A stretch of 64,000 bases of DNA from Alphaproteobacteria bacterium (GTDB lineage Bacteria; Pseudomonadota; Alphaproteobacteria; GCA-2746255), in contig OZ252220.1 in NCBI GenBank assembly GCA_965249135.1, positions 1,990,056-2,054,055 of the forward strand, given 5' to 3'. Positions within the stretch are counted from its first letter, which is position 1; each line of letters begins with the position of its first letter. The translations under genes and the position numbers were made by a program. Below the pieces are notes generated by a model. It saw nothing but the letters and a program-made list of their open reading frames with translations, ran no database searches and was not told the DNA's origin. Positions 798 to 51,595 of this stretch are shown here, piece after piece.

Positions 798-1415
798 ATG
801 ACGACTAGACTTTCACCAATGCAGGCAAGGGGATTTCGAAAAAAGGTAATTCTTTTTGCCATTCTCATTTTTGCACTCGCAGGCATTGGCGGCTTTTTCG
901 CCTTCAAAAATGAGGTCGGGCGGATCGCCAGCATCCCCAATCTCTCCCCGGAGGAACTCTCCCAGGGCCTTTCCACGCGTAAGGAAGATTTCGTTCCCTT
1001 TGACGTGCGAACGCCGGCAGAGTTTAGAGAAAGCCACCTTGCGGGAGCGATCCGGATCGAGCCCGGGATGAAGGCGCAAGGCTTTGCTCGGGAGCATGGG
1101 GATCGGCTGGAGGGGAAGACCGTGGTTTTCTATTGTACGCTTGGTGTGCGCAGCACGCGGCTTGTCCATCGAATCCGGGATCGCCTGGAAGGCCTAGGCA
1201 TTACCGCCTTCTATAACCTGAGCGGCGGCATCTTCCGATGGTCGAGGGAAGGCTATCCCGTCGTGAGGACAGAAACACCGGTGGACAGCCCCTTTACCCG
1301 CCGATCACCGATCGTTGATGAAGTTGCTGCACAACAGCGCTTTGCTCACGTTTCTCCTCGGGATAAAACAGGGTTTTCCATTACCGCTCCGATGGGTGAG
1401 GGGGACGCGCCATGA
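798..1415 (+). CDS. membrane-anchored rhodanese-domain sulfurtransferase
   Basis: N-terminal TM helix. Rhodanese active-site loop CTLGVRS (6-residue loop, sulfurtransferase type). Stop overlaps the arsM start (ATGA). Confidence 0.8.
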   Translation: MTTRLSPMQARGFRKKVILFAILIFALAGIGGFFAFKNEVGRIASIPNLSPEELSQGLSTRKEDFVPFDVRTPAEFRESHLAGAIRIEPGMKAQGFAREHGDRLEGKTVVFYCTLGVRSTRLVHRIRDRLEGLGITAFYNLSGGIFRWSREGYPVVRTETPVDSPFTRRSPIVDEVAAQQRFAHVSPRDKTGFSITAPMGEGDAP

Positions 1416-2580
1416 GCACGACGACACTCGATAAGGACGCCGCCGTTTTACGCCGTTATGCGGCAGCGTCGCAGGTTCGCGAAGAGGCCTTATGCTGCGC
1501 CCCGCAATACGACCCCGCCTATCTCAAAATTCTGCCCAAGGAAATTATCGAACGCGACTATGGCTGCGGAGATCCGACCTCTTACGTTCGTGAAGGCGAG
1601 ACGGTGTTGGATTTGGGAAGCGGCAGCGGTAAAACCTGCTATGTGCTTTCGCAGGTCGTAGGGTCGTCCGGCCGTGTGATCGGCATCGATTTTAATCCCG
1701 ACATGCTTGCCTTGGCGGAAAAGCACCGCCTCACAATCGCCAAGCGGATCGGCTGGGACAACGTCACCTTTTGTCGGGCTCGGATTCAAGACCTTCGGAC
1801 GGATATCGGGGTCCTCGAGAAGCAAATTGCCGAGAAACCGATCGCCAGTTACGAGGATTACAGCGCTTTCGAATCTCATCACCGCGAGATGGTGACGCCA
1901 CTCATTGCCGACAATAGCATCGACGTCATCGTCTCGAGCTGTGTGCTGAATCTTATCCATCCGGATGAAAAACAACTGCTATTCCAGGAGATGTATCGCG
2001 TGCTGAAAGTAGGCGGGCGCGTGGCGATCTCGGATATTGTGTCGGATGAAGAGGTCCCGGCACGCCTACGCGAAGATGCGGAGCTCTGGTCCGGTTGTGT
2101 TTCTGGTGCCTTTCAGGAGACGGCCTTCCTGCGTGCGTTCGAAGAAGTGGGTTTCTACGGGATTTCGATCGAAAAGCGCGACTCGACTCCATGGTGCACC
2201 GTCGAGGGTGCACCGTCGAGGGAATCGAATTTCGGTCCGTAACGGTAACCGCTCACAAGGGCAAGGAGGGCCCTTGCTGGGAGCGCAATCAGGCAGTGAT
2301 CTATAAGGGCCCTTGGCGGGAGGTACAGGACGATGACGGTCACGTTCTGCAACGCGGCGTACCGACGGCCGTATGTGACAAAACCTATCGGATTTTCACC
2401 CCCCCGTATAAGGGCGAGATCGATCCAGTGTCTCCTCGGGTCGATATTCCTTTGGAACAAGCCCATCCCTTCGACTGTTTACGCACCGTCGCACGTCATC
2501 CCAGAGAGACGAAGGGGATGGACTACGACGTCACCACGGAAGCGGCCGACGTTTGCGGATCGGAGAAGGATTGTTGTTGA
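1412..2580 (+). CDS. arsM: arsenite S-adenosylmethionine methyltransferase ArsM, reading frame interrupted by a 14-bp tandem duplication (ORF pieces 1412..2242 and 2095..2580); possible pseudogene
   Basis: N-terminal CC pair, YGCGDP and LDLGSGSG SAM motifs. The downstream frame carries conserved C-terminal segments (KGKEGPCWERNQAVIYKGPW and a Cys-rich tail). The frame change is +2, matching the 14-bp duplication. Confidence 0.8.
2193..2220. repeat. perfect 14-bp tandem duplication (ggtgcaccgtcgag x2) inside arsM
   Basis: Read directly: 2193-2206 equals 2207-2220. 14 mod 3 = 2 explains the switch from the frame of 1412 to the frame of 2095. Confidence 0.95.
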
Positions 2581-2598: not shown

Positions 2599-3129
2599 TT
2601 AGAGCCGTTCCGCGATAGCGTCTGCGTCGGGAGCCAGGTTTGCCAGAGTGGCGACCACTTCTTCCCACTGACCGGGCTTCATTTGTTGGACAAGCTGGGT
2701 TTGTACTTTCGTCCAAAGCGGCAGGGCTTCCTTCAGTCGCTTAACCCCTTTCGCGGTTAGGGCAAGCTCCTTATGGCGCTGCTTGGGACGGGCCTTCACC
2801 TTGATCAGACCATCCCGTTTAAGCGGCCTTAGATTGCGGGAAAGGGTTGAGGGATCCATCGCCATCTCCTGGGCAAGGCCCGAGATTGTTGGCCGATCCG
2901 CAAGCGCCGTACTGACCAGGATGGCCATTTGGTTTGCATGAAGCCCTGTGGGAGCCAGTGCTTCGTCGTAGAGCCGCGTCACCGCTCGGGAGGATCGCCG
3001 CAAGTTGTGGCAAACACAGACCTTTCTAGTCCGAGCAAATTTCTTAAGTTCTTCGCGATTCCATGCATCCGGCATGTGCATATCCCTTGATACTATCTCG
3101 GCAAGATAAGGAAAGCCGAACAATCCCAC
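2599..3129 (-). CDS. MarR-family transcriptional regulator
   Basis: MarR wHTH signature (NLRRSSRAVTRLYDEAL...GLHANQMAILVSTAL...ISGLAQEMAMDPSTLSRNLRPLKRDGLI). The real start is probably the internal MHMPDAW. Confidence 0.85.
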   Translation of the reverse strand: MGLFGFPYLAEIVSRDMHMPDAWNREELKKFARTRKVCVCHNLRRSSRAVTRLYDEALAPTGLHANQMAILVSTALADRPTISGLAQEMAMDPSTLSRNLRPLKRDGLIKVKARPKQRHKELALTAKGVKRLKEALPLWTKVQTQLVQQMKPGQWEEVVATLANLAPDADAIAERL

Positions 3130-3370: not shown

Positions 3371-4305
3371 ATGAGTGCAGATTCCCTAAAAACCCTTAAA
3401 TCCGTTTTGCTATCCGGCACCATGCTTCCTTTGGTGGCGGGGGCAGGCGTTATTGCGATTGGCGTGACGCTTGGTGACACCCCTGTGCAAGCCGAGCAGC
3501 TCGCGGGCTATTACAAAAATCAGGGAACGAAGAATCCCTGTGCCGCGAAGAATCCCGATATGGCAAGGCGGGGCTGCAACCCTTGTAACCCTTGCGCGGC
3601 GAAGGGCTGTACCCCTGTGGCCCGTGCGGTCCATGCGGTGCCGCTGCAGGCCCAGAGCTTTCGGATAAGGAAGCAGACGCGCTTTATAAGAAGCTCAAGG
3701 GCAAGATGGCGAAGGCCTACAAGCAATCCGGTCTTCCCTTCGCCGCCTATTACCAGACCTGGAAACGCTTCAATACCGTCCCATACGTTTCCGCCACCCA
3801 TGGCGGTCGTTATGTGAACAACTATGGGAACGCGAAGGCAGGCGCATACAGAAAATTCGAAGAAGCTGGGAAGATGCCCAAAAGCGCCATCCTTGTGAAA
3901 GACAGCTTCACGAGCGTGGCTGCGAAAGGATGCAACCCCTATAATCCCTGTGCGGCGAAGAACCCTTGTGCGGCGAAAGGATGCAATCCCTGCAACCCCT
4001 GCGCGGCGGAGAACCCTTGTGCGGCCAAGGGCTGCAACCCTTGCAGCCCGTGCGGTCCCTGCAACCCATGTGGGGCTACATCGAAATCTCCCATTGGTCC
4101 CCTCTTCGTCATGGAAAAGATGGGAGAAGGATTCTACCCCGCGAGCGGCGATTGGCGTTACACGATGGTCTTGCCAAACGGGCAGGTCTTTGGGACGACG
4201 AAGGGAAAGGGCTCCGACAAGGTTGAGTTCTGCATAACCTGTCACGTAGCTGCGGAAGATTACGATCACTTGATGTTCTTGCCGGACGAATATCGGAAAA
4301 AGTAA
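3371..4305 (+). CDS. cytochrome P460-family protein with signal peptide and two inserted Cys-rich NPC/AAK repeat modules; 1-nt frameshift near 3607-3617 (ORF pieces 3299..3817 and 3592..4305)
   Basis: AGGAG RBS before the ATG at 3371, followed by a signal peptide. C-terminal CITCH heme motif followed by [10 protein letters not shown], resembling the N. europaea P460 C-terminus (CAACH...DMVFTQFYP). About 20 extra Cys in [11 protein letters not shown] repeats. The frames join if one base is restored in tgtacccctgt. Confidence 0.7.
3919..4075 (+). repeat. coding tandem repeat (18-nt NPCAAK-type units) inside the P460 gene; a shorter block lies at 3535-3655
   Basis: Read directly: repeated aacccttg(t/c)gcggcgaag-like units. 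Confidence 0.8.
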
Positions 4306-4411: not shown

Positions 4412-5440
4412 ATGCGCGAGGATTGGACAAGGCCCCTTTTATTGGCAGCTGGCATATTTATCTTTTGTGTAACCGCCTACCATCTTTTTTCAGGGAACGA
4501 CGTCCTGGCCAGCGATTTGCGCAAATCCAGCGATTTGCGCAAATGGAGGTCAGAATGGCCCCATACGGACTTTGCAAAAACATCGATCGACTTCAATGAG
4601 ATTTCTTCCGGGGGACCCAAGAAAGACGGTATTCCTGCAATTGATTATCCGAGATTTAAGCCGATCGATGAGATTTCGACGGTCGGCAATGATGAACTCG
4701 TTGTGACGGTTATTATTGGTGATGAGGCACGTGCCTATCCAGTGCAAGTCCTGATGTGGCACGAGATCGTCAATGACAAGATCGGGGAGGTGCCCCTTTC
4801 CGTCACGTTCTGCCCGCTTTGCAACTCGGCAGTCGTTTTCGACCGGCGGCTGAAAGGGAAAGTCCTGGATTTTGGGACCACCGGTAAACTTCGCAACTCA
4901 GACCTCGTCATGTACGACCGTCAAACGGAAAGCTGGTGGCAACAGTTCACGGGTGAGGCGATTGCCGGATCCCTTACCGGCGAAAAATTGACGTTCCTCC
5001 CGGCGCGGGTCGAATCCTTCGCGAAGTTTCGGAAGCGGGCTCCAAAGGGAAAAGTGCTGGTCCCGAATTATACGAGCATGCGTGCCTACGGCTACAATCC
5101 CTATGCCGGCTATGACCGCAATCCCTATCCTTTCCGCTATCGGGGCGAAATGCCGTCAAACATCGCCCCGTTGGAAAGAGTCGTCTCGGTGGGGAAAGAG
5201 GCCTGGAGCCTCAAATTTCTCCGCAAACGTCGAAAGATCGTCGCCGATGGTCTTATTCTCACATGGGAATCCGGCCAGAACTCGGCGCTTGATACAGAGC
5301 GTATCAGCGAGGGGCGCGATATAGGGAATGTCATCGTCCAACGGAAAACGGCGGATGGCCCGGAAGATGCCGTTCACGACATAAGTTTTGCCTTTGCGTT
5401 TCATGCCTTTCATCCCGACGGCGTGATTCACGTGGATTAG
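4412..5440 (+). CDS. DUF3179-family protein with N-terminal TM anchor
   Basis: Characteristic DUF3179 segments (VTFCPLCNSAVVFDR, TGKLRNSDLVMYDRQTESWWQQFTGEAI). Confidence 0.75.
   Translation: MREDWTRPLLLAAGIFIFCVTAYHLFSGNDVLASDLRKSSDLRKWRSEWPHTDFAKTSIDFNEISSGGPKKDGIPAIDYPRFKPIDEISTVGNDELVVTVIIGDEARAYPVQVLMWHEIVNDKIGEVPLSVTFCPLCNSAVVFDRRLKGKVLDFGTTGKLRNSDLVMYDRQTESWWQQFTGEAIAGSLTGEKLTFLPARVESFAKFRKRAPKGKVLVPNYTSMRAYGYNPYAGYDRNPYPFRYRGEMPSNIAPLERVVSVGKEAWSLKFLRKRRKIVADGLILTWESGQNSALDTERISEGRDIGNVIVQRKTADGPEDAVHDISFAFAFHAFHPDGVIHVD
4510..4545. repeat. in-frame 18-bp perfect tandem duplication (SDLRKS x2) in the DUF3179 gene
   Basis: cagcgatttgcgcaaatc repeated twice (4510-4527, 4528-4545). Confidence 0.9.
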
Positions 5441-5512: not shown

Positions 5513-7093
5513 CTACGCAAAGTTGATCGGCCGTCCGATGAGCGATTCCGTAAGCCGTGCCGTGTTCCGGGCAACCAGCGCATAAATCGATACCTGGGGA
5601 TTGACGCCGAGGCTCGTCGGAAAGACGGATCCATCAAAAATGGAAAGCCCTTCGACTTGGTGATGGCGACCAAACGAATCGACGACCCCAAGCTTGGCAT
5701 CGTCCGACATCGCACAGCCGCCCATGATATGTGCAGAGAAGATAAGTGCGCGAGGAGGTTTCATCGAAAGACCCTCGGTGATCGCCTGTTTTGCCTCTCG
5801 CCAGCTTTCATAAGGCCGCGTCTCCCGGTGAACGGGAAAAACGGATTTTGCACCTGCTGCAAAGCTAAGTTCCGCCATCGAAAGATAAGCGTGACGGAAT
5901 CCTTCCCAGTGAAATTCATTTGTACGGTAGTCGAGCACGGGACTTTCATCTTTTTGGAGAACGACCGTGCCGCCTTCGAAAGAGGGATTGAACCCATCCC
6001 GTATTAGCGCAATCAAGGCATGCGTATAGGGAAGCTGCGCCATCCCGTCTGCACGCTGATCACCGAACGTCGGGATCGAAATCGCCGCATGAACGGGGAA
6101 AAGCGGAGGCACCTCAAGTTTATAGCCGACCTTTCCATCGATACCGTCGCGCCAGAGAAACTCATCCGAATAGATCGACTGCGGTGCTCCATCGAAAGGC
6201 AGGACTTCTTTCGATAATTCACCGGCAAGGGCATTGACCGGATGGAGGAAGGTTCGTTTACCAAGCCGTTGATAAGGATCTGGAATCTTGGATCGGAGAA
6301 GCAGGCCGGGTGAATTGATGCCACCCCCCGCCACGACGACGTTTGATGCATAAACCCTGATCTTCCGGCCGTTCGGATGAATACCTTCCGGATCGAGAGC
6401 CAGACACTGCACCATTTTCACCTGACCGTGCGCCGTTTCGATCTTCCTGGCTCTGGCATGGCTGATCAGGATGGCGCCGTGGTCAAGCGCCGCTGGAATC
6501 GTCGTTACCAGCATGGATTGTTTCGCATTCGTCGGGCATCCATAGCCGCAATAGCTGATGTTCCAGCATCCACGGACATTCCGGGACACGATGCCATGTT
6601 TCCAGCCAAGGGCATCGCAGCCACGAAGCAGCGCGCCGTTGTTGGCATTCGGAGGCACGTCCCAGGGCGCGATGGCAAAGCGGCGTTCCACCATTTCGAA
6701 CCACGGCGCCATCGTCTCTGCGTCCGTCTCCTTCACGCCAAACGCTTCCGCCCAATGGGCAAGGGTCTCGGGCGGCGTGCGGAAGCTTGCCGTCCAGTTG
6801 ACGACGGTGCCGCCGCCGACGGCCCGCCCCTGAAGGATGGTGATTGCCTTGTCCTTCGTCTTATGGCTTCCCGTGTCCCAATAGAGCCTACGGTAGGCGT
6901 CCCCCTCCCGGCCCGTGAAATCACGCGCCGTCCAATAGCCGCCTTCCTCGATCAGCACGACCTGCAGGCCGGCCTGGGCCAGCATTTCCGCCGCCACGCC
7001 GCCGCCGGCACCGGTACCGATGATGGCGACATCGGCGGCGAAGCTTTCGTCCTTCTCGAGCGTCGCAGCGTCGATATGGATTTGTTCCGCCAT
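5513..7093 (-). CDS. GMC-family FAD-dependent oxidoreductase (choline/alcohol/gluconate-2-dehydrogenase-like)
   Basis: N-terminal FAD fold (DVAIIGTGAGGGVAAEMLAQAGLQVVLIEEGGYW); GMC C-terminal domain. Confidence 0.85.
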   Translation of the reverse strand: MAEQIHIDAATLEKDESFAADVAIIGTGAGGGVAAEMLAQAGLQVVLIEEGGYWTARDFTGREGDAYRRLYWDTGSHKTKDKAITILQGRAVGGGTVVNWTASFRTPPETLAHWAEAFGVKETDAETMAPWFEMVERRFAIAPWDVPPNANNGALLRGCDALGWKHGIVSRNVRGCWNISYCGYGCPTNAKQSMLVTTIPAALDHGAILISHARARKIETAHGQVKMVQCLALDPEGIHPNGRKIRVYASNVVVAGGGINSPGLLLRSKIPDPYQRLGKRTFLHPVNALAGELSKEVLPFDGAPQSIYSDEFLWRDGIDGKVGYKLEVPPLFPVHAAISIPTFGDQRADGMAQLPYTHALIALIRDGFNPSFEGGTVVLQKDESPVLDYRTNEFHWEGFRHAYLSMAELSFAAGAKSVFPVHRETRPYESWREAKQAITEGLSMKPPRALIFSAHIMGGCAMSDDAKLGVVDSFGRHHQVEGLSIFDGSVFPTSLGVNPQVSIYALVARNTARLTESLIGRPINFA

Positions 7094-7415
7094 CAGACTA
7101 CCTTTTGCACCTCGTCCGGGATGTCCGGCGGCCCGTCATAGCCCACCCAGGGCCAGGCGCGCGGATTGTCGTACCAGGCGGCCATAACCAAGTCGTGGAA
7201 GGCGGCATAGGCAAGCTGCAGGAGCGTAAATGAGCTCGTCGACCAACGGCCCCCAGGAAATCCTCCACCTCTTTCCCGGAGGCCGTCTCCCAGCCGCTCC
7301 AAATGCCCGTGAGTGCTATTCTGGCCGGCGGGAAGTCCAATAGGTCGAAAAGCTGGCGCAGGTCAGCCTGCATCAGGGGGGACATGGCGGCGATTAGGCG
7401 GTCGATTTCACCCAA
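7093..7415 (-). CDS. small hypothetical protein translationally coupled to the GMC oxidoreductase (TGATG overlap); apparent frameshift near 7226-7234 (ORF pieces 7098..7415 and 7093..7302)
   Basis: Each overlapping ORF has one protein-like half and one junk-like half; the halves join across an A3/T3 run. Confidence 0.45.
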
Positions 7416-39775: not shown

Positions 39776-40062
39776 GCGCCGGAAAATTAGGCCTTAATTC
39801 CCAATTATATACTTTAAAAATACACCATATCTTGTTAAAAAATGGATATCTAGTAAAGGCACGGCGTCAGCATCCTCTCTCTGGTAGAGAGAACTTGCCA
39901 AAGACGGCCGTTTCTGGAATCGATGCAAGGTTGAATGCTAGGAAAAAGGCCGGGGCTTGTAATCCCGGCCTCTATAGGCGTCCCCGCTGCAATTTATCGG
40001 AACCGCCGCGGGGCATTGGATTTCTGTAGTAGGGCTTATCTAGCCTCAAGCGCTTCCTTCGT

Positions 40063-40138
40063 CAAGGCGGTTCTCTTACGAGAAGGAGAACCGCTATGAA
40101 CAAGGCGGTTCTCTTACGAGAAGGAGAACCGCTATGAA
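40063..40138 (+). repeat. perfect 38-bp tandem duplication (caaggcggttctcttacgagaaggagaaccgctatgaa x2); each copy carries an SD-containing hairpin and an ATG
   Basis: Read directly: 40063-40100 equals 40101-40138. Hairpin cggttctc / gagaaccg encloses or abuts AAGGAGA. Confidence 0.9.
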
Positions 40139-40367
40139 AAAGCGGAAAATCGTTGATGCAAGGGCGGACAAAGAGGGTGACATCACCCATGTCCGTTTCG
40201 AAGATAACTCTCGATTTACCTCTGTCGAGCAGGCCATTCCGATGGCCGATCGCGGGGAAATCAAAGACACCCATGTTGTCAGACGCCAAAATGCGAAGAC
40301 GCACTTGCGGACGGACCGCGATGGCAGGAAAAGCAACAACCTCGATTACATGGCTGGCGGCGGCTAA
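40134..40367 (+). CDS. DUF3892-family small protein
   Basis: 77 aa; DITHVRF...SVEQAI...TH(L)RT.RDG...NNLD pattern recalled as DUF3892; SD in the duplicated leader. Confidence 0.55.
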   Translation: MKKRKIVDARADKEGDITHVRFEDNSRFTSVEQAIPMADRGEIKDTHVVRRQNAKTHLRTDRDGRKSNNLDYMAGGG

Positions 40368-40527
40368 AGCCAGTAGGTGAAGCGCGGCTTCATAACGCGT
40401 TCATTCCTGTAATCGTCGAGATTCCGATACAGGTTGGCCGTTATGGAGCCGTCTTCATCGTCCCGGTTCATCGTCCCGGAATATTTCGCTCGCGATATAA
40501 ATTTTATCGTCCAAGACGACGAGATAA

Positions 40528-40698
40528 TCATAGTTTCTCAGCATCATCGCGGTGCTTCGTTTGCGGTTTGGCTTTTGGTTTACGTGGACGCGGGGGCGTG
40601 TTCAACATGCGACGAATGACTGCTTTTTCAATAGGACGCTGGCGGATGCTCTTATCGGTCACGACTTTGTTTTTATTACCTTTTTTTGTATCAGTCAT
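40528..40698 (-). CDS. small basic hypothetical protein (56 aa, K/R/P-rich)
   Basis: Unlisted ORF MTDTKKGNKNKVVTDKSIRQRPIEKAVIRRMLNTPPRPRKPKAKPQTKHRDDAEKL with an AAGG-type RBS. No recognisable family. Confidence 0.25.
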   Translation of the reverse strand: MTDTKKGNKNKVVTDKSIRQRPIEKAVIRRMLNTPPRPRKPKAKPQTKHRDDAEKL

Positions 40699-40748
40699 CG
40701 TAGCTACCTTGGGCTGGTAAAAAATAAACGGCTGCTTTTAAAGAGGGG

Positions 40749-41210
40749 GTGAACAATACCGTGCAGCAAACCATTTCGCGGGATAAATGGGAGGTCGCTT
40801 TTCTCGAATCGGCAAAAGACACCCTGTTATGGGCGGCTGATTATTGTGCTTGGGCCATACAAAGGAAGTGGGAGACTGGCGATACTCGCTCCTTTGATTT
40901 GATTGCCGATAAGGTGGCAGTGGAGGCAGGGTACACGCCATTACTATTAAAGAAAGCGAGACCCGCAATCTTAGCTATCCTTTCGGAGGTGCCCAGGGGC
41001 ACTTTCGCTAAGCAAGGGTCCCGCTTCTGGAACCTACAGAATCACGGCTGGCAAGGAAGGTCAAATCACAATCAACCGCGCCTCAACCAAACCAACCATC
41101 TAGCTTTTTCAAGCACTTGTCGGACGTTTAGCCTGGCAAGCCGAAGCTTCGGCAATTCACCACCCTTGAGACCTCCCATAGGTAAGCCGTTTGCCTTCGA
41201 TGCCTCTTAA
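40749..41210 (+). CDS. hypothetical protein (GTG start after AAGAGGGGG RBS); C-terminal ~20 codons overlap the transposase 3' end
   Basis: ORF with a strong RBS; no recognisable family. Confidence 0.35.
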   Translation: MNNTVQQTISRDKWEVAFLESAKDTLLWAADYCAWAIQRKWETGDTRSFDLIADKVAVEAGYTPLLLKKARPAILAILSEVPRGTFAKQGSRFWNLQNHGWQGRSNHNQPRLNQTNHLAFSSTCRTFSLASRSFGNSPPLRPPIGKPFAFDAS

Positions 41211-42081
41211 GGCCATATCCGCACGGGTGGCATCCTCAATCTTGCGGGTGTTGTAGCGGAAATCGAACTCCGCCAGGTACCGATGAAGGTGTTTCTCTTG
41301 GCAGTGCTGGTAAACGCCCCTCATGCCCCGTTTAAATACGCTGAAATAGGTTTCCACGGCATTCGTGGACTCACCCGAAGGGCCGACATACTGACCCCTA
41401 GCGTGAACGACCGTCCTGTGGGCTGCGAACTCCTTGCCAAGTTTCGTATAGATGCGGCTTTCGTCCGTATGCAATTCCGACTTGCGGGAGATGTGACGGA
41501 CGAGAATTTCACGCACCGTCCGGGCATTGGCCGTTTTAACATTGAAGGAGCGAACACTACCGCCGGGCTCTACTAGGGTCACGACCGAGCGCTTTTTGGA
41601 CAGGCCCTTTTTCTCCGGCCATTTCTTGCCGCGCACTACATCCTTGGAGCCGAAGTAGGTTTCGTCCACCTGGATGGCCTTGCCGGGGCCGCCCATAGGC
41701 GAGGAATTGTCCCCTCGCATGGGCCTCGCGGATGCGGTGGGCCATGAACCACGCCGTCTTGTAGGTAATGCCAAGCATCCTGTGTAGTTGGTGGGCGCTC
41801 ATGCCCTTCTTGGAGGCGCAAATAAGGTGGTTCGCCGCCAACCATTTATGCAGGGGGACGTGGGAGCGCTCGAAAAGGGTGCCTACCGTCACGGAGAACT
41901 GCTTTCTGCAAGCGCCGCAATGCCATAGGCCGGGGCGGGCTGCCTTGCCGCGAATTCGCGTCGAGCGGCCTTTCTTGCCACAATGAGGGCAAGTAGGAAT
42001 TTTGTCCGGCCAGCGGGCCGATTCCAGCCATTTCCGGGCTGTTTTCTCGTCGTGAAACCGCTTTTCACCAAGGCTTACCAT
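41157..42081 (-). pseudogene. IS1595-family transposase, frameshifted (ORF pieces 41557..42081 and 41157..41774; shift at C4/G4 run 41711-41714)
   Basis: N-terminal zinc-ribbon (CPHCG...CGACRK) and ...YKTAWFMAHRIREAHARG in one frame; ...KAIQVDETYFG... DDE domain in the other. Confidence 0.75.
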
Positions 42082-42323
42082 CTTCTTAGCTCCTTCATAT
42101 CCTTACATAAAGGAGCATATCGGAATCAGAGTGTATGTGTCAAGTATATAATTAGGCCTTAATTCCTTAATTAAGATTATTAACCTAAAAATTCTTGCTT
42201 TGTTCCAGGATCCGTTCCACACTTTCGACGGATTTCAGCCGGGCGAGGGCAATTTTCATACGCCCGTATTCAGGCAGGCCGGGCCTGCCGTGGAATAATC
42301 CGGCACATGCAATGGTAAGAAGG

Positions 42324-51475: not shown

Positions 51476-51497
51476 CGTGGCGATTTTCTGCCGCTAC

Positions 51498-51525
51498 CTT
51501 CGCCGCCTTCGCCGCCTTCGCCGCG
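51498..51525. repeat. 9-bp tandem repeat (cttcgccgc x3) abutting the 5' end of tRNA-Thr
   Basis: Read directly. Confidence 0.8.
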
Positions 51526-51595
51526 TTAGCTCAGTTGGTAGAGCACAGCATTCGTAATGCTGGGGTCGTAAGTTCGAGTCTTACACGCGGCACCA
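51520..51595 (+). tRNA. tRNA-Thr (anticodon CGU)
   Basis: Cloverleaf. Acceptor stem gccgcgt/acgcggc plus CCA. D-loop agctcagttggtagagc. Anticodon stem cagca/tgctg with loop ttCGTaa. T-arm ggttcgagtcc-like (aagttcgagtctta). Confidence 0.9.

Follow-up and report, generated by a model that had tools for sequence, protein, structure and literature searches.

A perfect 14-bp tandem duplication breaks an ArsM-family gene in an alphaproteobacterial contig, probably as a recent loss-of-function allele under relaxed selection

Within the stretch of DNA analysed here (64,000 nucleotides, referred to below as the window), the coding sequence of an ArsM-family gene is interrupted by a perfect tandem duplication, which raises the questions of whether the gene was disrupted in the organism or in the course of producing the assembly and, in the former case, why such an allele would persist. 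The 14-mer GGTGCACCGTCGAG occurs twice on the forward strand, head to tail, with the first copy at 2193-2206 and the second at 2207-2220, in the local order GACTCGACTCCAT GGTGCACCGTCGAG GGTGCACCGTCGAG GGAATCGAA. Direct reading, a script and TRF (2193-2222, period 14, 2.1 copies, 100% matches, score 60) all agree with the original prediction of a perfect 14-bp tandem duplication at 2193-2220. Identity at period 14 covers 30 nt (2193-2222) and extends only 2 nt (GG) past the second copy, to 2222, so that the microhomology at the junction amounts to at most 2 nt; either of the two copies could be the ancestral one. Simple arithmetic gives an expectation of about 2e-4 such 14-mer repeats per 64 kb, and perfect tandem duplications with a unit of at least 12 bp were absent from 30 shuffles of the window.

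The duplication lies inside codons 261-265 and shifts the frame after residue 265, so that residues 266-384 are lost. The 5' fragment of the gene (1412..2242, forward strand; 276 aa), delimited from the list of open reading frames and by family and structure comparison, encodes 265 native residues followed by 11 out-of-frame ones (APSRESNFGP tail) and a TAA codon at 2240-2242. The 3' remainder (2221..2580, forward strand; ~120 aa) lies in the shifted frame, in which an ATG at 2191 starts an ORF of 129 aa. The anticipated end of the first frame at 2242, 22 nt past the second copy, was therefore found, as was the ArsM-like C terminus, which is read up to 2580 in the frame of ORF 2095..2580; scripted removal of one copy yielded the single 384-aa product that had been foreseen. 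Programmed frameshifting was ruled out, because no −1 slippery heptamer (X XXY YYZ) is present in 2150-2245. A further lesion, an in-frame 3-nt deletion at 2397..2399 (forward strand) that removes Ser326, is private to the window allele according to the DNA alignment.

Homologues of 383-390 aa, more than 100 of them full-length (58-92% identity, 96-100% coverage), align collinearly with the repaired ORF along 100% of its length. Alignment to homologues, proposed in the original prediction as a check of the interruption, thus places the break within a colinear protein; homologues of this clade do not end near the position equivalent to 2242, and nowhere in the region is conservation stronger than in the downstream frame. 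The repaired protein matches Pfam Methyltransf_31 with 98 bits over residues 61-245, including the DLGSGSG motif, and accordingly displays both the class I SAM-methyltransferase fold and a glycine-rich SAM-binding motif. The top PDB sequence matches are exclusively ArsM/AS3MT proteins, and when the AF2 model (pLDDT 85.4) was compared with known structures, the top 13 matches were CmArsM, CrArsM and human AS3MT (E values of 1e-24 to 1e-22), with 323-346 aligned columns that include the C-terminal domain, at ~25-27% identity and TM-scores of 0.52-0.57; fold matches to other methyltransferases were ~12 orders of magnitude weaker. The proposed ArsM identity therefore stands at the level of the superfamily, through these sequence and fold matches, and does not extend to a curated family: the best-scoring NCBIfam model is indeed an ArsM model, the arsinothricin-type NF040538, but its score remains under the cutoff (375.8 bits vs 500; profile positions 16-319 of 356), and the arsenite methyltransferase model PRK11873 (NF008823; 181.5 bits vs 263) and the arsenosugar ArsM model NF038099 (131.9 bits vs 400) failed as well.

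In the 52 family members compared, C28, C52, C177 and C229 never vary, whereas conservation of C29 is at least 90%. The last three of the invariant cysteines align with the YGCG, SNCV and GEC motifs that carry the arsenic-binding cysteines of CmArsM; the repaired protein thus has the four conserved cysteines of the superfamily (C44, C72, C174 and C224 in CmArsM), all of them upstream of the frameshift. Judged by sequence and modelled fold, the gene is best assigned to the ArsM/AS3MT superfamily, as a member of a BgArsM-like, uncurated clade of ~385 aa with predicted methylation activity. BgArsM of the arsinothricin pathway of Burkholderia gladioli (PMC8552651) is of similar length (378 aa, compared with 384 aa for the repaired window protein), and its cysteines 30, 54, 181 and 233 parallel residues 28/29, 52, 177 and 229 here. 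Unlike BgArsM, the window gene scores below the NF040538 cutoff, follows a rhodanese gene, is broken, and is accompanied within the 64-kb window by neither the radical-SAM gene arsL nor the permease gene arsQ, its partners in the arsQML arrangement. With CmArsM, CrArsM and human AS3MT the window protein shares the fold and the YGCG, SNCV and GxC cysteine motifs, whereas its clade differs from them in a strongly conserved Cys-rich C terminus that ends in CC. Across the 52 sequences, this domain has two cysteines without any variation (C284 and C317) and others that are at least 90% conserved (C351, C377 and the terminal CC, C383/C384), which suggests that the Cys-rich C terminus could constitute an additional, putative metal- or metalloid-binding or redox site, undescribed in the solved ArsM structures.

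The 5' fragment keeps the SAM-binding motif together with Cys28/29, Cys52, Cys177 and Cys229; the GIEFR motif, the last core β-strand and the Cys-rich C-terminal domain (KGKEGPCWERN...CGSEKDCC) fall into the 3' remainder. The five residues directly past the break (G266, I267, E268, F269 and R270) are invariant in the 52-sequence family alignment. The AF2 model places the break between strands 262-264 and 267-277; strand 267-277 is the final one of the core sheet and aligns with CmArsM and human AS3MT. The window allele has no intact ORF that covers both this sheet and the C-terminal domain. The wider family does include short ArsM proteins of ~270-285 aa (272 positions in the PRK11873 profile), so that loss of the C-terminal domain alone would be no proof of inactivity. 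The possibility that the 276-aa product represents a natural short ArsM was nevertheless rejected for this clade, because it lacks an invariant motif as well as a core strand found even in CmArsM and AS3MT. Given that the GIEFR motif, the last core strand and the Cys-rich C-terminal domain are all missing, we infer from sequence and model that the product is inactive.

Comparison with close relatives indicates the direction of the change. The closest relative (P0001; 92% amino acid identity), encoded on the syntenic Logan contig L001, has one copy of the 14-mer with otherwise identical flanks, and the same holds for the sister strains L002, L004, L005 and L007 (~98% nucleotide identity). Since every close relative carries a single copy, the duplication is derived, and the expectation that it would be disruptive is borne out by these single-copy relatives and by full-length homologues that run past 2242. 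The identical 276-aa product was found on only one deposited NCBI/ENA contig of 2.12 Mb, the duplication-specific products P0121 and P0130 likewise occur on one contig only in a collection of 15 billion proteins, and a gapped DNA pattern fitting both alleles had no match in the JGI metagenomes; in a scan of genome contigs the nearest match was an Alphaproteobacteria MAG (79%).

Several relatives are disabled in the same gene by other means. The 90%-identity cluster of P0001 contains products of 68, 189, 221, 276, 280, 308, 385 and 398 aa. In L002 and L003, which stem from two samples, arsM carries a 17-bp perfect tandem duplication (CCAGAGAGACGAAGGGG) near its 3' end; in L004, Gly69 is changed from GGA to the stop codon TGA alongside ten private nonsynonymous changes; L005 and L006, produced with two assemblers, share a GAG to TAG change at Glu281; and in L076, from a sister species, a 104-bp deletion is flanked by TGTAT. 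The gene is intact in L007 and L001. All four sister strains have C29Y in common, a change at a near-invariant position. Within the clade, arsM has accumulated 19 nonsynonymous changes and two stops against 10 synonymous ones (21:10), compared with 32 nonsynonymous and 52 synonymous differences from the outgroup (Fisher p = 0.006), and the raised ratio extends to neighbouring genes, namely the GMC oxidoreductase (10 nonsynonymous changes and two stops vs seven synonymous) and the MarR gene (5:3); the DUF3179 gene was left out of these counts owing to a misaligned segment of L007. Some of the sister contigs have a coverage of only 3-5x, and part of the polymorphism could therefore be sequencing error, or else ordinary slightly deleterious variation.

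The explanation that we consider probable is that this ArsM-family gene, released from strong selection, has recently and genuinely lost its function in the window. The 14-bp tandem duplication, arisen de novo in codons 261-265, shifts the frame, and a stop is reached after 11 altered codons, leaving a product devoid of GIEFR, the last core strand and the C-terminal domain. The lesion would have persisted because of relaxed selection on arsM in this alphaproteobacterium-like species cluster, in which sister strains carry other disabling lesions in arsM and adjacent genes are decaying too. Both the biological rather than technical origin of the duplication and the neutrality of the loss are inferred from these comparisons. 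In itself the allele carries little weight, as one more accessory gene lost by frameshift, and for annotation ORFs 1412..2242 and 2191..2580 should be called one pseudogene. The ArsM-like clade of ~385 aa is in turn large and uncurated, and the coexistence of intact and knock-out alleles in one species cluster allows functional comparison.

The recurrence of lesions, with at least five independent inactivating events among eight arsM alleles from two sister species, could also be taken to mean that loss of ArsM is adaptive and has been selected repeatedly, for instance owing to the toxicity of methylated trivalent arsenicals or to the loss of a partner biosynthetic enzyme, the lesions then being convergent. 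Genomic context lends this reading some appeal. Distant family members often adjoin the arsenosugar radical-SAM enzyme ArsS and its peroxidase-like partner TIGR04169: of 145 flanking ORFs from 37 loci, 12 contain Radical_SAM, seven of them together with DUF3641, and three ArsS neighbours that were checked scored 413-453 bits against TIGR04167 (cutoff 300). By contrast, tblastn with three ArsS proteins gave no match in the window or in the loci of close relatives, and among proteins longer than 250 aa in the window, CxxxCxxC occurs only in PqqE and in an ORF without a family match. Against adaptive loss, at least two arsM alleles (L001 and L007) are intact, and the rhodanese, P460-like, GMC oxidoreductase and acyl-CoA dehydrogenase genes are also broken in various strains, with IS elements present. 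General relaxed selection at the locus thus accounts for the data without positive selection, and we regard repeated selection for loss as quite improbable.

The state of the surrounding genes is in keeping with such relaxed selection. Upstream lies an intact gene for a membrane-anchored rhodanese-domain protein (798..1415, forward strand); its stop and the ArsM start share bases (ATGA), so that the two genes probably form one operon. In L002, L003, L005, L006 and L007, this rhodanese gene is frameshifted by a perfect 14-bp tandem duplication of its own (GACGTGCGAACGCC; at 3577-3605 in L002), whereas the unit is single-copy at window position 1002; both the window and L004 have an undamaged rhodanese gene. 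Downstream, all relatives share the syntenic gene for a MarR/ArsR-like winged-helix regulator (2599..3129, reverse strand), which converges on the ArsM gene. The gene after it (3371..4305, forward strand), whose product is cytochrome P460-like and contains CNPC repeats, is read in two frames split near 3611 and has an intact homologue of 294 aa in L001, suggesting a probable second pseudogene beside arsM; a 51-bp coding repeat within it (3922-4076) has one unit more than in L001. The next gene, encoding a DUF3179 protein (4412..5440), contains a perfect 18-bp tandem duplication at 4509..4544 (forward strand), 2.3 kb from the 14-bp one, that is in frame (SDLRKSSDLRK) and adds six residues (SDLRKS) near the N terminus; because the unit is single-copy in L001 and L004, this duplication was derived in the window lineage. 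Some strains have fragmented GMC oxidoreductase and acyl-CoA dehydrogenase genes, and there are insertions of IS elements. The arsM locus is an accessory region undergoing erosion.

A technical origin has to be weighed against this background, namely that the organism has a single copy and that the second 14-mer was added during read correction, assembly or polishing. In favour of an artefact, the duplicated allele is known from a single contig, and the window contains four perfect tandem duplications with a unit of at least 13 bp, compared with ~0.8 per 64 kb in controls, an excess that might reflect technical bias. Duplications of 14 bp outside homopolymers are, however, not a usual error type, and comparable duplications are reproducible: the 17-bp duplication in arsM is found in two samples (L002 and L003), and the 14-bp duplication in the rhodanese gene is found in five assemblies, one of which was produced by a different assembler (Logan). 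In addition, arsM is demonstrably dispensable in the clade. Across 14 kb of housekeeping DNA (acs, hemC/D, tsaD, rsmB and others), alignments with three sister assemblies contained 0-1 gaps at 1.1-1.5% substitutions. Indel noise is thus very low, errors would need to have spared the essential genes, and indels concentrate where selection is weak. Between the two origins that the original prediction had left side by side, recent inactivating mutation and assembly artefact, the independent lesions in sister strains and the near-zero indel count in housekeeping DNA favour the former, and we consider the artefact unlikely.

If the duplication is real, it might still represent one state of a phase-variable gene, in which precise excision restores ArsM at a useful frequency. 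Two perfect direct copies are a substrate for slippage or recombination-mediated loss, two different tandem duplications (14 bp and 17 bp) occur in arsM among the window and its sister strains, and precedents exist in phnE of Escherichia coli (PMC13492104) and in pneumococcal capsule genes (PMC4022640). The cryptic phnE allele of strain K-12 is alike in several respects: an extra perfect, non-homopolymer unit frameshifts a dispensable gene, the shorter form is functional elsewhere, and loss of exactly one unit restores the frame (PMC13492104). The hallmarks of that allele recur in arsM: an additional perfect copy that relatives lack, and a shifted frame that runs into an early stop codon. In phnE, the extra 8-bp unit is lost at a rate of ~1e-7 to 1e-6 (PMC13492104), but functional strains already carry two octamers (AB to ABB), which makes that site prone to slippage, whereas the ancestor of the window allele was single-copy with at most 2 nt of homology. 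In pneumococci, spontaneous duplications switch cap3A, cap8E and tts (Waite 2001, 2003, as cited in PMC4022640), and, as in arsM, duplications of varied length and position inactivate one ORF in different isolates (PMC4022640). High-frequency, reversible phase variation has been demonstrated for the capsule genes, whereas arsM shows nonsense codons, a deletion and a nonsynonymous excess. A pre-existing repeat tract is absent from the arsM site, where all relatives are single-copy, and the irreversible lesions in other strains (nonsense codons and the 104-bp deletion), together with the excess of nonsynonymous change, point to decay rather than to a maintained switch. Although excision of exactly one copy would repair the gene, there is no sign of a dedicated switch; of the readings considered, phase variation appears the most improbable, and a recent loss-of-function allele in a decaying gene remains the preferred one.

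The form of the lesions raises the further question of whether the lineage is biased toward such duplications. In ~6 kb around arsM, all five within-species indels longer than 3 nt are perfect tandem duplications (7, 14, 14, 17 and 18 bp), with junction homology of 0-2 nt, and no within-species deletion longer than 3 nt was seen in the same interval. Four perfect duplications with a unit of at least 13 bp are present in the window, two of them inside a mobile insert, and the controls yielded ~13 non-periodic duplications in 1.07 Mb of unrelated loci (~0.8 per 64 kb by hand count), placing the density in the window at ~5x that of the controls. An insertion-biased indel spectrum in the species cluster, with de novo duplications of 7-38 bp as the main route to pseudogenes, is offered only tentatively, given the small sample, as a conjecture with the balance against it. 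Were it true, arsM would be one of several genes lost convergently, a hint that replication or repair has some peculiarity in the lineage. Decay of bacterial pseudogenes is usually deletion-biased, and the bias, if genome-wide, would run in the opposite direction. Palindromic sequence occurs at the start of the 14-bp unit (GGTGCACC) and within the 18-bp unit (ATTTGCGCAAAT); nonetheless, a palindrome or hairpin trigger was rejected, as the apparent enrichment did not hold up under randomisation (Fisher p = 0.33 and 0.045 for palindromes and inverted repeats, respectively; n = 9, one of which was mis-specified).

Several other repeats were observed. The mobile insert measures 2.3 kb (39808-42149), lies between direct repeats of ~17-24 bp (AATTAGGCCTTAATTCC) and has no counterpart in the sister strains L073-L075. 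It encodes an IS1595-type transposase in two overlapping ORFs (a Zn-ribbon part at 41557..42081 and a DDE part at 41157..41774) along with a DUF3892 gene and ORFs without assignment. A perfect tandem duplication of 38 bp (40063-40138) immediately precedes the DUF3892 gene (40134..40367) and takes in the hairpin, the ribosome-binding site and the ATG region; its unit includes an inverted repeat with a 9-bp stem. Within the same insert, a perfect 13-bp tandem duplication (TTCATCGTCCCGG) is located at 40454-40479, and removal of one copy extends a small minus-strand ORF to ~56 aa, for which no family match was obtained. In L002, a 475-aa ORF without a family match, in a region that has no counterpart in the window, contains perfect tandem repeats of 11 bp (two copies), 16 bp (two copies) and 12 bp (four copies) within 400 bp (6851-7235). 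Finally, a perfect 9-bp repeat (CCTTCGCCG; 3.1 copies, 51497-51524) abuts and overlaps the 5' end of the gene for tRNA-Thr (anticodon CGT; 51520-51595), the only tRNA gene of the window.
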